Positions 24,339 to 31,824 are shown, numbered from the stretch's first letter. The stretch is DNA of 40,833 bases from a virus (IMGVR_UViG_3300007609_001205:1-40833), one strand, 5' to 3'. Numbers and translations are program-made. The notes: generated from the letters alone by a model not told the origin.

Positions 24339-24367
24339 AAAAAACCCTACTTCGGTAGGGTTTTTTT
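24339..24367. terminator. Rho-independent terminator after ssrA, potentially bidirectional
   Basis: AAAAAACCCTAC-TTCG-GTAGGGTTTTTTT: perfect stem with A and T tracts on either side. Confidence 0.85.
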
Positions 24368-24738
24368 GTGGAGGCGGAGGGATTCGAACCCTCATCTTCA
24401 TAACGGAACGATATCAATCATTCACAAGTTTAGTCAAATTTTTCTAAATCTGACAAAATATTCGGTTCTTTCGTATCTAAAAAACTCCGACAAAAAACCC
24501 ACACCATTTTAGACTGCTGTGTTTCAGTGGAACTTTTAATGAATCAGTGGTTAAACCAACTCAAGCTCAGTTGCCTCGAACTGTCCGTTTCGTAGAACCG
24601 CTACTACATCTTCACGAGTACCTACTTCATTTGTAACGTTGCCGTTTACAAGTTGATCGACTTATCAAATCGGTGTCAATCAGCCCGATACCTGCTCAAT
24701 AACGAACGACATTATAAATCAACTGCCGAAACGCCCCC
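24368..24738 (-). ncRNA. ssrA: tmRNA (transfer-messenger RNA), about 370 nt
   Basis: 5' GGGGGCG pairs with 3' CGCCTCC including the G3-U70 Ala determinant and discriminator A; T-arm GAGGG-TTCGAAT-CCCTC; internal resume context TAAAC|GGC AAC and tag ORF 24643-24551; CCA not fully encoded. Confidence 0.92.
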
Positions 24739-24751
24739 AGATCATCATTAC

Positions 24752-24770
24752 TATATATTATACAAATATA
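24752..24770 (-). promoter_or_regulatory. Tandem host-type (TATATTTG, 24770-24763) and phage-type (ATAATATATA, 24761-24752) promoter motifs upstream of ssrA
   Basis: Minus strand reads TATATTTGTATAATATATAG, ending 12 nt before the mature 5' end. Confidence 0.55.
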
Positions 24771-24811
24771 CGAAAAAAAGTTTATACGGATTTTATATAT
24801 AGATAATAGAT

Positions 24812-25759
24812 ATGGGAATTATTAAACACATAGGAAATTTCATAGTTGAAAGAAATGGTGATTTCGAAGGCGGTGACCACATTCATTCATTTATAGGAAT
24901 GAGTGACGATGAACTTGATAACATAACAATAGATGTGTTTGAACTTATCAAGGAAAAGGTTCTACAAGTAGCATATGGTTATGCAAATTCATTAATAATA
25001 ACAGGTCAATCGGGAGTTGGAAAGACACATGATGTAACAACTACACTAGAAGGTGCAAACTTACGAGAAGGAATTGATTATATATTCAACTCAGGTAACA
25101 TATCAGAAGCCAATCTTTTTGAGGAATTGTTTATGAACCACGACAAATTGATAATATTCGATGATTGTGATTCTGTTTTCAAAGATGTAAATACATTAAA
25201 ATCTGCACTTGATTCAAAACCCAAAAGAACCGTAACAAGAAAATTGAAAAGCCACTTCGATGTTGCAGGGATGACCATGAATGATATAATTGCAAATTTC
25301 AAAGGGGATAAATCAATGGCAGACAATAAACAACTGTTTTTTCCTAAGAATAAAGGGAAACTCCCAAAACAATTTACATTCACAGGAAGAGTAATATTCA
25401 TATCCAACCTTAAACAACACGAAATAGACCCTGCATTGGTAACAAGGGCAACTGCAAGTATTGATGTTGATCTAACACATGAAGAGGTATTGGAAAGGCT
25501 TAAAGGCATACTCACAAGTATGAAGCCTGATATCCCAGATGAAATGAAAGAAGAAGTTCTTAATTTAGTGGATTACCTGACCATGAACTTTGAAACAAGA
25601 CACCCACTTAGTATCAGAACAGTTGCAAATGCAATGGACACTCGTGTAAGTAATGATAAGAGGTATAAAACCATCAACGGTAAGAAATATCCATTGTGGG
25701 CTATTATGATAAAAGAAGATCTAGTTGGTAAGAAAGCCAAAAAAAGACCAACGGAATGA
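24812..25759 (+). CDS. P-loop AAA+-type ATPase
   Basis: Walker A GQSGVGKT, Walker B LIIFDDCD, LKSALDS, FTGRVIFISN. Confidence 0.85.
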   Translation: MGIIKHIGNFIVERNGDFEGGDHIHSFIGMSDDELDNITIDVFELIKEKVLQVAYGYANSLIITGQSGVGKTHDVTTTLEGANLREGIDYIFNSGNISEANLFEELFMNHDKLIIFDDCDSVFKDVNTLKSALDSKPKRTVTRKLKSHFDVAGMTMNDIIANFKGDKSMADNKQLFFPKNKGKLPKQFTFTGRVIFISNLKQHEIDPALVTRATASIDVDLTHEEVLERLKGILTSMKPDIPDEMKEEVLNLVDYLTMNFETRHPLSIRTVANAMDTRVSNDKRYKTINGKKYPLWAIMIKEDLVGKKAKKRPTE

Positions 25760-26349
25760 AAAAATTAAAACATTTCATAGAATTCATAAAGGAATCCAAT
25801 GACGAATGGGTAGAAAGAACTGTACCAATACCAGTAAAGGATTTTTTCAGCAAATGGTTCAGTGATAAGAAGAAAATTGACGAAGATGATAATTACATCA
25901 CTTATGTTTACCACAACAAAGAATATGATGATAAAGAAGGAGAATATTGGTGGGAGAAAAAGAAAATAATAAAATTAGACAAAAGTAGAGATGATGTAAC
26001 ACACTATTATGAATATGATGAAATAAACAGACCTCTATATAAAGTGAGAGAAGAAGGTATGACCAGAGAACAAGAACTGATGATACGTTGTTGGTGTGGT
26101 ACTGAAAAGAATCCAAAACCGAATGGGAAATACATTGGATTTGAAAAAGGATTGGCAATGTATAAAAGTTTCCTATCGGATAGGATAAATGGTAAATTAT
26201 ATCACGTTTTACCGGATGGGGATATATTAGAAATGTTGGATGATGAAAAATTAGAGGATGAAGATTACGTAAATGATAAAATAGATTTTCTCCTTGATAC
26301 AAGAAATGAAGATAAAATACACATCATACAAAGACAATTAGGAAACTGA
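25756..26349 (+). CDS. Hypothetical protein with MKKLKHFIEFIKES leader
   Basis: 197 aa; ATGA-coupled to the ATPase. Confidence 0.7.
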   Translation: MKKLKHFIEFIKESNDEWVERTVPIPVKDFFSKWFSDKKKIDEDDNYITYVYHNKEYDDKEGEYWWEKKKIIKLDKSRDDVTHYYEYDEINRPLYKVREEGMTREQELMIRCWCGTEKNPKPNGKYIGFEKGLAMYKSFLSDRINGKLYHVLPDGDILEMLDDEKLEDEDYVNDKIDFLLDTRNEDKIHIIQRQLGN

Positions 26350-26907
26350 TGCCAACTTCTCTTCAAGTCTGGCTTTACGAGCCTTTGCTTCATCTACCTT
26401 GAACTTTGGTGCATTTTCAACGAAACCCTTATTGTTCAATTGTTTATTCACCTTTTCAAGACTACTTTTCAGTTTATCAACATCCACAACTATCTCACTA
26501 ACATCATCGACTTTTCTAAATTGTGGTTTCTGTCCCTCAATGTCAAATAAAATGCCTTTATCAGACGACTTCCCAAGTTTCACAAAAACAGTCTCATGTG
26601 ATGCCAGTTGAACCATCTTCCATTCTTTTAAAAATTCAGTTAGATCATTTTTTATATTACTCTCACCAGACATGATATCTCTCAGTTCAAATACTTCGGG
26701 TATAAAGTTCTTCCATTTATCAAATAAGCCAGTGTTTTGAAAGACACTGAACCAAGAACCAGAAGAAATAACTTGTGATATATCACCAATATCCATTCTG
26801 ATATCAGTCACAACCACACCATTCACTTCTATACTTTCAGAATCTATACGGGATTTTATATCATTTACCTTCAATCCCCATTCTTTCAATATTGTCTGTA
26901 GTTTCAT
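26338..26907 (-). CDS. Protein with S4-like N-terminus and valyl-tRNA synthetase C-terminal coiled-coil arm
   Basis: C-terminus KSSLEKVNKQLNNKGFVENAPKFKVDEAKARKARLEEKL matches the ValRS tRNA-binding arm (L.N..FV..AP); N-terminus MKLQTILKEWGL...I...SIEVNGVVV is S4-like; start moved to ATG 26907. Confidence 0.65.
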   Translation of the reverse strand: MKLQTILKEWGLKVNDIKSRIDSESIEVNGVVVTDIRMDIGDISQVISSGSWFSVFQNTGLFDKWKNFIPEVFELRDIMSGESNIKNDLTEFLKEWKMVQLASHETVFVKLGKSSDKGILFDIEGQKPQFRKVDDVSEIVVDVDKLKSSLEKVNKQLNNKGFVENAPKFKVDEAKARKARLEEKLASVS

Positions 26908-28051
26908 TTTGTGTAAGTTTACGAGACAAAGGTAATGATTCCCAATCAATATTCACACATACATCTGATAATTTTTTCAAATATGTCATATCTAAACATT
27001 CATCAGGGGTGTGTTCGTTCATATAACCAACCGATATATTTGTACATTCGGGTATAACACCCATAAAAGATGCAGAATCACTACTCACACCTGTTGGGTC
27101 TTTCTTCATATCTAATCCATTTGAGTTCATTTGAGAACATAACTCATCAGAAAATTCATCAGAACAACACACTACATCCTTTTGTTTAGTTATAATGGAG
27201 TGGTTACCCTTTCTATCAAAGGCCACACACCGTTCAACACCATGTAGATGTGTCTGTGTATCAAATGAATCAGAAACTGCCTTAGAACCAATGCAACCAG
27301 CCTCCTCGCCAATGAAAAAGTAATATATCCCCGGAACTTCGTTGTACATCATATAAACCATTAGTGCAACGCCTGCTTTATCATCTGCACCAAGTATAGT
27401 TTCACCATCAGTCATTATCAATTCAGAGTCACCTTCCGACTTTGAAAATAAATTTATTTCGGTTTGGTCATCACTACGAGTATCCAGATGTGACACAAAC
27501 ATTGTTTTGGAATTCCCAATTACTTTATAATAGTTCCCAAATTCATCCACTTCAACATCAGGCAACATTTGTGCAACCTGCTCCTCATATCCGTGTGGGT
27601 ATGTCTTCTGAACCATAGCCAAAAAAGTGTATCTTATATCAGATGGGTCATAACCACTATCAGTGAACTCAATACGTTGTGTCCCCACATTGCCCTCATT
27701 AACCTTCAAATCCACGTGTATATCATATGAATTTTGCTCATCCCCAACAAATTTAACTTTGGAATGAACAACATTAACAGGCAATTCTTCTTTATATAAT
27801 TTAATTAACTCCCAAGCCACTTTTTTAAGAGTTTCTTTCGTAGGTAGTTTTTCACGAATACGAATAAGTGCAACATGTTGCCTCTTATCAACTAATTTAA
27901 CAACAACATCATCGTCATCACCCTTTACTCGAATAAGATAGTTACTTGAATCTACATCATTGCCCACAAATACTTTGAAACCATCAACCTCAATATCCTT
28001 GATATCAAAGGATGAACTCTTAGATTCATTGAATGTCATTATGTATCTCAT
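26861..28051 (-). CDS. M28/M20-family zinc peptidase with N-terminal NFACT-R (DUF814)-like domain
   Basis: SHLDT, LGADDKAG, GEE.GC.GS, AFDRKG, SD...F and NISVGY..EH metal-ligand motifs; N-terminal DGFKVFVG...N.L.....DD segment. Confidence 0.8.
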   Translation of the reverse strand: MRYIMTFNESKSSSFDIKDIEVDGFKVFVGNDVDSSNYLIRVKGDDDDVVVKLVDKRQHVALIRIREKLPTKETLKKVAWELIKLYKEELPVNVVHSKVKFVGDEQNSYDIHVDLKVNEGNVGTQRIEFTDSGYDPSDIRYTFLAMVQKTYPHGYEEQVAQMLPDVEVDEFGNYYKVIGNSKTMFVSHLDTRSDDQTEINLFSKSEGDSELIMTDGETILGADDKAGVALMVYMMYNEVPGIYYFFIGEEAGCIGSKAVSDSFDTQTHLHGVERCVAFDRKGNHSIITKQKDVVCCSDEFSDELCSQMNSNGLDMKKDPTGVSSDSASFMGVIPECTNISVGYMNEHTPDECLDMTYLKKLSDVCVNIDWESLPLSRKLTQNETTDNIERMGIEGK

Positions 28052-28068
28052 AGAGTATATATTCCATA

Positions 28069-29976
28069 TTAAATATGATTACGCCTCCAAACATACTTAT
28101 CTTGACCACAACCATAAACACGATGATACCCACGATCACACATTATCTCAACCTCTGTTTTAAGTGGGTCAAATCCATCTTTTATCAATTTACTTTTATT
28201 ATAATTGAACCTATGTTTACGAATACCATCAACAACCCACCAATAATTCGGTGATGTTCTGTATAACATTTCAAATCCCATTTTTTCATAAACCTTACCA
28301 GAAAACATTGATATATCAGCAAATGTGGATATCTCATCAACATCATTATTATCTATGTAATATTTAAATAATTTTGAAGCAGACCCATGTACTGTAGTGT
28401 TTAATTTATTACAAAATCTAACTAATTCATTTCCTTTCTTTGGAGAATGGAATAACATACAAGATACCAATTCACCATTATAAAAAAGACCAACAGCATC
28501 TCTATACGTTGTCTTGCCCTGTATATGATTCATATCTAAAAATTCATTAACCAACTTCTTATCATTTATCACTCTTATATCACACTTCCTACCGGGTATT
28601 TTATACTTGGTCAATCCTAAAAAATTCCTAATTATAGATTCAACAATATCTCGTTTATACAACCAATCATCTTCCCATATGTGTAGTAAATTAATACCTT
28701 GTTCATTACACAAATCAGTCTTTTCCAAATGATAATTAGAATGTTTATATAAGTCTGAGTGCCAATATAAACCATTATACTCAATTGCTATATTTTTCGA
28801 AGGTATATAAATATCCAATTCAAAGGGTGGTATTATTGATTTACTGTTTGGTATATACTCAACTCCAATACTATCCAACCATTCCATTATATTTTTCTCT
28901 TGACCCGACCCACTATTCAATGGGTTACATATTGAACATGGTTCAATGTTTACTGACAATCTTCTCTGTAATGTTGTTGGGTGTATCGAAAATGTATGTC
29001 CACATGAATCATTCTTCAAATCAACAAACCCCTTAATGTCTGAGGCGGATATGAATTCAAATCCCATATCATCATAGAATTTAATTCGTTTCATTAGCCT
29101 TTTTTCAACAAATTCATCACTATTTATGAGATTTTTATATTCTTCTGTTTGAGTATAATGAGTAGCACCATATTTATCATTCATTATACCATCTATGGAA
29201 TTTCTGAATTCATAAGATTGAAAATACCAATCAGTTCCATACTTTGACTTATTCGTATTTTTTACCTTATCAACATATATTGGGGACTGTGAATAATGAT
29301 CAACACCATACTTTGAATTATTGGTGGCAATTGCCTTGGCTTTATATTCATCTGTTCGTGTGAACCAATCAACTCCATATTTTTCTCTGTTTGTTCTAAT
29401 AGTCTTATCAATATATTCCAGACTTTGTACATAATGACCAACACCATATTTATACATCATAGTATCTTTAGAAGTTTTTTTAAACTCCTCTGTTTTGAAA
29501 TAATGATCAACACCATATCTCTTCAAACACGTATCTCGATACTTTTTTTTAACTTCCTCATTCTGGAAAGATGATGTTGTACCATATCTTTCTAAGTTCG
29601 TTGAAGCCTGTTTTTTTTTAACCGATAACAATTTAGCAACATTATCAACACCATACTTAGACAATGTTGTTTTTTTTCTTCTTACCTTAGTTTCCTTACT
29701 ATTTTGTGCACACTTAGCAGAACAATTCTTTTTATACCCATTTAACCAATTACGATTGAATGTGGTATCATTTCCACACACACATTTATAATATTTTGGG
29801 TAATCATTAACCCAATGCCATATCATTTGCTTGAAAGGTAAATCAAGAATTGAACAGAAATTTTCAATTTCTATTAATACCTCATTATAATTTTTTTCAA
29901 AATAACTTCTACGCATTCTGCTAGAACTACCATCCAATATATCGTTTATAACATTTAATCTCTTTTTAATAACCAT
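28069..29976 (-). mobile_element. Free-standing homing-endonuclease-like gene (Hef-like PD-(D/E)XK nuclease with 23-aa repeats)
   Basis: 8 repeats of T..[KR]YG[VTA] at 23-aa spacing; CxC/CxxxC and CxH...CxxC zinc motifs; ELDIYIP...IAIEYNGLYWH nuclease motif; lies directly downstream of the MCP terminator. Confidence 0.7.
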
Positions 29977-30102: not shown

Positions 30103-31824
30103 TTAGTTTAATAACTGTGCATCATCCTTCACACGGATTGTCATGTACTGCTTCTCTGGGAAGAAACCAACGTCAGCAATCGCGTATCTTGATCTAAGTA
30201 GCATTCTTGGTGCGAATGTTGCCTCAGAAATAACAGAGATTGACTGTGCCATCAAATATGGTACGAAGATCAATCCTGGCTGATCTGGGTTATTCTTTCT
30301 ACCAAGTACGATTCGGTTATCGTTGTACTTCATGTATGGATCAACATATACCTGAATATCAGCTACTTGTCCAATTGGGTACAACTGACCCTGACCGTTC
30401 AACTTAGATTTAACTGGATTAACAGTGTATCCAACTACATCCATAAGAGCAGCAGCAAGACCCCCGTTAGTTACAGCGAACTGTGCTGGTCCAACACGAC
30501 CCTCAGTTGCGATGTAGTTAGAAGCATGCATCATCCTAGTGATGAGTTTTCTTTGAACTGCGTGAGTGGTTTCACCACCTGGTCCAGTTGTAGCTGTAAC
30601 ATATGCAGTATCAAGGTCGAAAATTGTATGACCTGTAATAGTTGCTGTTGCGGCTGCTGGAGCAGTTCCACGGTTAGCATCTCCAAGTTCGAAGATTCTT
30701 GAAATAATCTGCTTAGAGATTACCTGAGAAAGTTCATTAACAAGGATTGACTCCATTTTCTGAACGATATCCATACCTGTGTTAGCTTTGATATCCTCGA
30801 TTTCAGTTCTTCTAAGTGCAGAAGATACTTCAATAGTACCAACAGCAACAGATTTAGACGAAATCTTCGGTCCAATAACACCTGCATATCTTGAATCATC
30901 TTGATCACGATCCATTGGGTAATCACCAGAACTTGTATTAGAGTTCCAATTTGCAGAGAACCCTGGAAGCTGATCTTCAAGAGCAGATACCAAATCAACT
31001 GATACAGAAGAGAAGGTAACTCCTGAGAATGTACCTGCTGCCAATTGAGCGTTCATATTTGAAGCATTATCAAATGTATTTTTATCCGCATCCCACTGAT
31101 ATGGGTAAGCACCACTACCTGCACTATTAGGAGCAGTTGTAGAGTTAAACTGACGGAATGCTCTAAAAATAGGAAGACCATCTACACGAGAGAATCCTAA
31201 GAATTCCAACCAACCTGCTTTAGTAGCCGTAGGACCAGCAGTACCGATAGTATCGCTCAAGAAATCCAAGAACAATTGACCATCTTCCAATCCACCTTGT
31301 GTTTCTCTAAGACCCTCACTAGTTATATTGTGAGAAAGAGTTGCAGTAAGTGCAGTAAGTGCAGTAGCATCAGTTGAACTCAACTTGAATACTTGCGGTC
31401 TTGAATCACCACCAACATCTCTAAGATCATCATATTGGAAATCAATATAAAGAAGATCGATTTTTGGACCCGGAGTAGGTTTTACAGCAACAAGGTCAAG
31501 ACCAATTGTCTGGGCTGCGATTTTCATAGCTACTGGAAGTAGGTTCTGACCAAGATCACCTGATCCGATGTTACCTGAAACAGCACCTTGTGATCCAAAT
31601 CCTGAACCACCACCAAGGAGACCTGGTAGAGTACCTGGTTGTGCAGATTGAACACCGCCCATACCGGCAGTTGTAGCATTAACGTAAGCATTTTCATTGA
31701 TTGAATGGAATTCAGCATATTCTGACAACCAATCAAGTCTTTCTTCGTTAGTTACACCCATGTTTTCCAATACTGGACCCCATTTCTTAATAGCTTTTTG
31801 TTTGTCTATTCTAATGTGTGACAT
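30103..31824 (-). CDS. gp23: Major capsid protein (T4 gp23-like)
   Basis: KKWGPVLE N-terminus, AQTIGLDLVAVKP, GRVGPAQFAV, VYVDPY, G..F.PY.M and RSRY motifs; own terminator. Confidence 0.95.
   Translation of the reverse strand: MSHIRIDKQKAIKKWGPVLENMGVTNEERLDWLSEYAEFHSINENAYVNATTAGMGGVQSAQPGTLPGLLGGGSGFGSQGAVSGNIGSGDLGQNLLPVAMKIAAQTIGLDLVAVKPTPGPKIDLLYIDFQYDDLRDVGGDSRPQVFKLSSTDATALTALTATLSHNITSEGLRETQGGLEDGQLFLDFLSDTIGTAGPTATKAGWLEFLGFSRVDGLPIFRAFRQFNSTTAPNSAGSGAYPYQWDADKNTFDNASNMNAQLAAGTFSGVTFSSVSVDLVSALEDQLPGFSANWNSNTSSGDYPMDRDQDDSRYAGVIGPKISSKSVAVGTIEVSSALRRTEIEDIKANTGMDIVQKMESILVNELSQVISKQIISRIFELGDANRGTAPAAATATITGHTIFDLDTAYVTATTGPGGETTHAVQRKLITRMMHASNYIATEGRVGPAQFAVTNGGLAAALMDVVGYTVNPVKSKLNGQGQLYPIGQVADIQVYVDPYMKYNDNRIVLGRKNNPDQPGLIFVPYLMAQSISVISEATFAPRMLLRSRYAIADVGFFPEKQYMTIRVKDDAQLLN

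Follow-up and report, generated by a model that had tools for sequence, protein, structure and literature searches.

Phage-encoded transfer-messenger RNA (tmRNA) and SmpB are known from huge phages (PMC7162821) and from phage G and mycobacteriophages (PMC4131195), and they occur in 402 of 18,146 phage genomes (PMC9004378). The ssrA tag of Escherichia coli comprises 11 residues, and the long tags of Mollicutes accompany a switch to Lon (PMC9382460). In bacterial ribosome-associated quality control (RQC), RqcH operates with RqcP, and RqcH's NFACT-N domain decodes tRNA-Ala (PMC8012679). This study examined positions 24368-28051 of a 40,833-nucleotide stretch of viral DNA (IMGVR_UViG_3300007609_001205:1-40833, hereafter the window), which makes up the initial 40.8 kb of a linear virus record that measures 152 kb and has an estimated completeness of 25%. 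A sequence-only reading had placed a tmRNA with an atypical tag, an AAA+ ATPase, a protein with an S4-like start and a ValRS arm, and an M28 peptidase with an NFACT-R-like N-terminus in this region, and had proposed that they form one rescue-and-degrade system. All four elements lie there, and their domain assignments proved correct or close to correct. Our analysis indicates, however, that the tmRNA is probably one component of a trans-translation kit whose parts are dispersed over the phage genome and whose tag is extended. The tmRNA itself lies inside a collinear post-capsid block and would not require its local neighbours.

The window encodes a T4-like capsid and a prohead protease. Its capsid is 64-65% identical to those of the complete genomes LR745206 (635 kb) and LR756502 (642 kb), which belong to the Mahaphage clade and have predicted Bacteroidetes hosts (PMC7162821). 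Judged by these comparisons, the source is a Mahaphage-clade jumbo phage with a predicted Bacteroidota host. The tmRNA, its tag frame, and its candidate signals are as follows.

24366..24738, minus strand: one-piece tmRNA (Rfam RF00023, 59.9 bits against a cut-off of 47)
24551..24643, minus strand: tag reading frame of 30 codons plus TAA, GNVTNEVGTREDVVAVLRNGQFEATELELV, with the resume codon taken from the Rfam alignment
24763..24770, minus strand: putative promoter-like element of the Bacteroidota -7 type, TATATTTG, 32 nt upstream of the tmRNA
24340..24367, minus strand: terminator-like hairpin directly 3' of the tmRNA, visible in the sequence

The 3' end of the tmRNA reads ACAA, with the discriminator A present and CCA not encoded. 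The alanine identity pair G3·U is present in the window copy and invariant in 29 of 29 aligned copies, among which 28 of the 49 predicted pairs exhibited compensatory change. The aligned copies show that the tmRNA is intact and under structural selection. The motif TAnnTTTG, from the Bacteroidota -7 promoter consensus (PMC6847099), was found upstream of 22 of 36 tmRNAs, compared with a background of 3.5%; the terminator-like hairpin was not listed by a consensus scan. ARAGORN called no tmRNA in the window. With a profile built for the clade, 40 of the 46 related loci examined yielded the tmRNA; of the negative loci, five end within approximately 2 kb and one is a fragment that carries an inversion. 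Most copies of the family escape the ARAGORN or Rfam cut-offs, and many scored below the Rfam cut-off (10 loci tested, and also LR745206). Because standard tools often miss long-tag tmRNAs, phage trans-translation is undercounted. The tmRNAs of most relatives carry non-canonical T-loops, such as GGCAGUA (L040:9297-9679), and fall below the Rfam cut-off; the T-loop is canonical in the tmRNAs of the window's subclade.

The tag of the window comprises 30 residues, starts with GNVTNEVG, and ends in ELELV. The tags of relatives measure 27-30 residues and follow the consensus GNV(T/N)EVGT(S/R)EDLVAALQNN(L/M)(L/I)xVE(E/D)LxV(A/V). The tag frame was open in 35 of 35 relatives and the remaining two frames were blocked in all 35; insertions and deletions at the start of the frame measured 3 or 6 nt. 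A short frame encoding ATLQMK was considered as the tag and rejected, since the Rfam alignment and conservation favour the Gly frame. The nucleotide pattern of the tag core was found in 77 viral contigs and in one of 185,579 species genomes. This single match (JALOAD010000047.1, locus L085, in a bacterial metagenome-assembled genome) is a 25,694-bp contig carrying capsid genes and the tmRNA, has an IMG/VR counterpart matching in size and position, and is probably misbinned phage DNA. More distant Mahaphage-like genomes have different tags that are likewise long and acidic (approximately 24-28 residues), and a tag profile matched none of the phage proteins collected. The tag appears to be particular to these phages and to have approximately three times the customary length. 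The tmRNA resembles those described in huge phages (PMC7162821) in its one-piece form, its G3·U pair, its Mahaphage clade, and the location of SmpB elsewhere in the genome, and differs from them in the conserved tag of 27-30 residues and in the many members below the Rfam cut-off.

The tag is acidic with a hydrophobic end, and its C-terminus stays small and hydrophobic; the endings in relatives include EVA, ATV, SLV, and AVV, and the common LAA ending is absent. Like the extended ssrA tags of Mollicutes (PMC9382460), it is longer than that of E. coli and lacks LAA, which suggests a change in protease specificity; unlike them, it is unrelated in sequence, has no NYAFA ending, and is encoded by a phage. 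These endings also bear on an alternative explanation, in which the tmRNA competes with or modifies host trans-translation, either because its tag is poorly read by host proteases, sparing phage proteins, or because the RNA titrates host SmpB. The lack of LAA (PMC9382460) and the non-canonical T-loops of many relatives are consistent with this explanation, and an inhibitory tmRNA-like RNA has been suggested for phage DS6A (PMC4131195). Nevertheless, the small and hydrophobic C-terminus, the SmpB and Clp parts encoded by the phages themselves, and the canonical T-loop of the window copy argue against it, and we consider it rather improbable.

The remaining parts of a trans-translation kit were sought elsewhere in the genomes. 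SmpB was found in seven of seven relatives searched and lay at least 37 kb from the tmRNA where both could be placed. ClpP was present in four of six genomes and ClpS in five of six, this genome having both, and a Clp ATPase was present in five of five relatives. The positions in the 152-kb record are given below.

77319-77513: ClpS
110378-110908: ClpP
143610-144450: eight tRNA calls

SmpB, ClpP, ClpS, and the Clp ATPase are likely partners encoded elsewhere, and the Clp parts are better candidates for the degradation step than the NrdC.10-like ATPase or the M28 peptidase of the locus. Phage-encoded ribosome rescue by the tmRNA is likely. The tmRNA would be expressed from a promoter of its own, receive its Ala from the host, and be loaded with phage SmpB; during infection it would free ribosomes stalled on broken mRNA and add the 30-residue tag, which a Clp-type protease of the phage or the host would then read.

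To place the tmRNA among its neighbours, the following features are needed.

30103..31824, minus strand: major capsid protein gp23, at the head of the conserved block
28069-29976: homing endonuclease (DUF7487, phrog_3339), an insertion that separates capsid from peptidase and is absent in locus L009
26861..28051, minus strand: M28/M20-clan metallopeptidase (phrog_4191), with the motifs SHLDT, GADDK, GEE, FDR, and NEHT intact
27695..28018, minus strand (bounds approximate): degenerate NFACT-R fused to the peptidase, with the DxxxH His and the GSH Ser lost
26338..26907, minus strand: 189-aa protein with an S4-like N-terminus and a ValRS C-terminal coiled-coil arm (residues 144-188)
25756..26349, plus strand: 197-aa protein, subclade-specific, with a capsid-targeting-like leader (59-63% identity in L005, L006, and L009)
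24812..25759, plus strand: NrdC.10-like AAA+ ATPase, 315 aa, beside the tmRNA only in this genome
23431..23964, minus strand: NADAR gene (Pfam, 102 bits), the neighbour found most constantly downstream of the tmRNA (38 of 41 loci)

The region 24368-28051 belongs to a post-capsid block that is conserved in one Mahaphage subgroup. There, prohead protease and capsid are followed by NFACT-R, the peptidase, a single variable gene, the tmRNA, NADAR, and Dam; this order is retained across phages with capsids 62-100% identical (15 clusters at 80%). Among 32 tmRNA-anchored loci extending at least 5 kb upstream, NFACT-R was present in 28, the peptidase in 29, the capsid in 29, and a gene for an acidic protein in 28; among 41 loci extending at least 2.5 kb downstream, NADAR and Dam were each present in 38. 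Because the loci are related, these counts are not independent, and because NFACT-R is linked to the tmRNA to the same degree as capsid and Dam, collinearity explains its linkage. Translation genes were linked to the tmRNA no better than unrelated genes. In addition, L096, L124, and L143 have the long-tag tmRNA beside a tail sheath gene and lack both NFACT-R and peptidase there, and L140 has this arrangement without NFACT-R; an inversion in L056 carries the tmRNA with NADAR and Dam away from NFACT-R; and the complete Mahaphage LR756504 encodes tmRNA and SmpB with no NFACT-R. In LR756501, SmpB was found but a full tmRNA was not detected. NADAR still lies near the tmRNA in a distant phage (locus L014) in which the rest of the block is gone. 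The acidic protein, of 150 aa and without a Pfam match (L028:8778-9221), directly precedes the tmRNA in the 28 loci.

The ATPase carries Walker A (GQSGVGKT) and Walker B (IIFDDCDS) motifs that are invariant among its homologues. Pfam AAA matches were sub-threshold; the protein matched phrog_1250 (E 8e-29) and was 26% identical (E 5e-8) to the annotated nrdC.10 of a T4-like phage; it is homologous to the T4 NrdC.10 AAA ATPase, with which it shares the Walker A and B motifs (PMC1524935). In a comparison with protease-associated AAA+ families, no AAA_2, ClpX, or Lon match was obtained. None of the 78 tmRNA-anchored loci, whose lengths differ, contained the gene, and it was missing from the locus in all subclade relatives. 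A word search of viral contigs for further loci of the ATPase returned none. In the three closest relatives checked, it is placed elsewhere; its orthologues (69-76% identity) sit among small variable genes, one of them 34 kb off on the same contig. By its distribution, the ATPase is an NrdC.10 gene recently moved to the locus.

These findings bear directly on the proposal that the four genes form one RqcH/RqcP-like system in which ATPase and peptidase read the tag. An NFACT-R fold, a weak S4 fold, a ValRS arm, and a tmRNA do occur within 3.7 kb. However, the ATPase was missing from all 78 tmRNA-anchored loci and is typical of T4-like phages (1168 phage records), the four-way combination occurs only in this genome, the genes lie on both strands, the S4/arm gene adjoins the tmRNA in one subclade only, and the NFACT-R domain is degenerate. 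The locus resembles bacterial RQC (PMC8012679) in its NFACT-R-fold domain and its weakly supported S4-like domain, whereas the peptidase protein lacks the NFACT-N, HhH, coiled-coil, and M domains of RqcH/NEMF. NFACT-N (PF05833) was also absent from six large or complete relatives, three complete and two near-complete genomes among them. Synteny largely refutes the four-gene system, which we regard as very improbable.

Pfam and NCBIfam returned no NFACT-R in the window peptidase, none was matched by an Atlas model of the N-terminal part of this protein, and searches of PDB sequences with the window proteins returned nothing. However, a profile of the N-terminus run against 1.84 billion representatives returned 23 other proteins; all 10 of the matches scanned were NFACT-R, one of them a full RqcH. 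An hhalign comparison with a solo phage NFACT-R gave 97%, and the modelled fold matched RqcH, NEMF, and CCDC25 with VIA Z scores of 9.5-12.7 (next match, 4.2), a result that leans toward NFACT-R because the model alignment held intact members. In relatives, an intact NFACT-R stands as a solo gene immediately upstream of the equivalent peptidase. The DxxxH histidine and the serine, which define the NFACT-R family (PMC4075521), are kept in 36 of 37 solo NFACT-Rs and lost in six of six fused proteins; a quick capsid tree nested the fusion subclade among solo-NFACT-R phages, and one subclade member, L011, has lost the domain. The NFACT-R call is thus right, but the window copy is a decayed remnant. 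The phage NFACT-Rs resemble CCDC25/Jlp2 and the ThiI-fused NFACT-R (PMC4075521) in occurring outside RqcH, with DxxxH and Ser kept in the solo copies, and differ in that they either stand alone behind the capsid gene or are joined to an M28 peptidase; PMC4075521 lists no viral copies and contains no mention of phage or virus.

The co-catalytic metal ligands of the peptidase (H184, D219, E245-E246, D275, H343) are invariant, and it matched phrog_4191 with E 1e-67, Pfam matches being below cut-off. Its homologues occur mostly in small podophages, with four to seven paralogues per complete Mahaphage. The tmRNA of L051, L055, and L067-L071 is immediately preceded by a second peptidase paralogue. 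A short basic leader ending in F-N-E was found in 16 of 26 solo NFACT-Rs, in the fused peptidase, and in the 197-aa gene, compared with a background of 1-2%, the pattern having been written after those leaders were seen; it is absent from NADAR, Dam, and the S4/arm protein. The leader is reminiscent of the 10-residue capsid targeting sequence of T4, and by this analogy its bearers could be packaged in the head. The main role of the NFACT-R remnant in the window may be to provide the peptidase with a leader for head packaging.

The 189-aa protein contains Val_tRNA-synt_C (PF10458) at 30.7 bits against a cut-off of 25.9, and the domain was matched in 10 of 10 homologues, which confirms the ValRS arm of the sequence-only reading. 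In the modelled protein, the arm matched 1gax (VIA Z 7.5 over 54 residues, rmsd 2.4), with unrelated hairpins scoring equally. For the S4-like start, Pfam and NCBIfam gave no match. Foldseek returned mostly eS4 chains or TyrRS as top matches, weak at E 0.5-2 over 46 columns with an rmsd of approximately 2.4, and all six rows of an Atlas structure search contained S4 or S4e, also weakly (TM 0.42-0.48). VIA searches of the model were filled by the C-terminal hairpin and therefore provide no test of S4. The S4 fold is weakly supported by these models. The protein also differs from RqcP/Hsp15, a small stand-alone S4 protein that acts with RqcH on the 50S subunit, in being a fusion with a ValRS arm, and no phage RqcH was found. 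Its family is small (10 clusters). In the window's subclade, the gene precedes the tmRNA and replaces the acidic 150-aa gene; three more distant homologue loci have no adjoining tmRNA, the distance being 28 kb or no tmRNA being found by Rfam within 8 kb, and one distant homologue lies near GluRS and CCA/poly(A) polymerase. A search of five large relatives, made without a positive control, gave no match. The simplest inference, and a probable one, is that the S4/arm protein binds tRNA and RNA generally as an accessory and that in one subclade it took the place of another gene.

A further explanation is that an ancestral module of solo NFACT-R (possibly head-packaged and injected), peptidase, and tmRNA acts on stalled ribosomes or peptidyl-tRNA, and that in the window's subclade RNA binding passed to the S4/arm protein during the decay of NFACT-R. 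The intact DxxxH..GSH of the solo NFACT-Rs, the order kept across 15 capsid clusters, and the mapping of NFACT-R decay and S4/arm arrival to one subclade are consistent with this explanation. Nevertheless, capsid, NADAR, and Dam are equally linked, the tmRNA occurs without NFACT-R and peptidase, the peptidase is mostly a podophage family with several paralogues per Mahaphage, and NFACT-R alone is not known to have rescue activity (PMC8012679). We consider this module unlikely.

Several observations weigh against a dispersed kit with an extended tag. Two covarying hairpins lie inside the tag frame, so RNA structure may account for part of the conservation of the tag peptide, and the third-position excess of the tag is modest (0.32 vs 0.22). 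RNA-binding genes cluster at the locus: the solo NFACT-R lies approximately 2-4.5 kb from the tmRNA in 28 of 32 loci, an RNase R-like gene lies upstream in 27 loci, and the S4/arm gene of L011 ends 8 nt before the tmRNA. Neither SmpB nor a Clp ATPase was detected in the present genome, which is 25% complete.

Phage tmRNA and SmpB are already known; in the literature searched, for which coverage was incomplete, we found no description of the extended phage-specific tag, of a solo viral NFACT-R, or of an S4/ValRS-arm fusion. Phage tmRNAs are almost untested, and a large long-tag family is defined here. The presence of SmpB and Clp parts in the same genomes makes it testable whether the phage tags nascent chains for its own protease, and RNA binding can be assayed simply for both the solo viral NFACT-R and the S4/ValRS-arm fusion. 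A more speculative and doubtful extension is a private Mahaphage quality-control channel, in which phage tmRNA and SmpB would add a 30-residue tag that is poorly read by host proteases and specifically read by the phage Clp ATPase/ClpP or an adaptor, aided by head-packaged solo NFACT-R or by the S4/ValRS-arm protein binding tmRNA or peptidyl-tRNA.

Additional genes were observed around the block. Bacterial RNase R degrades non-stop mRNA together with tmRNA; the RNase R-like gene of the 27 loci (for example, L038:509-2413) encodes RNB, CSD, and S1 domains, lies upstream of the prohead protease, and was not found in the window's genome fragment. The 197-aa gene is a fifth gene within 24368-28051 that the sequence-only reading did not mention. 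In three relatives the gene after it encodes 173 aa, carries a DGHHR motif, and looks ParB-like by eye (L005:11707-12228); the window lacks it. Positions 1082-1555 of the window encode a putative GreA/GreB factor, as judged by eye.

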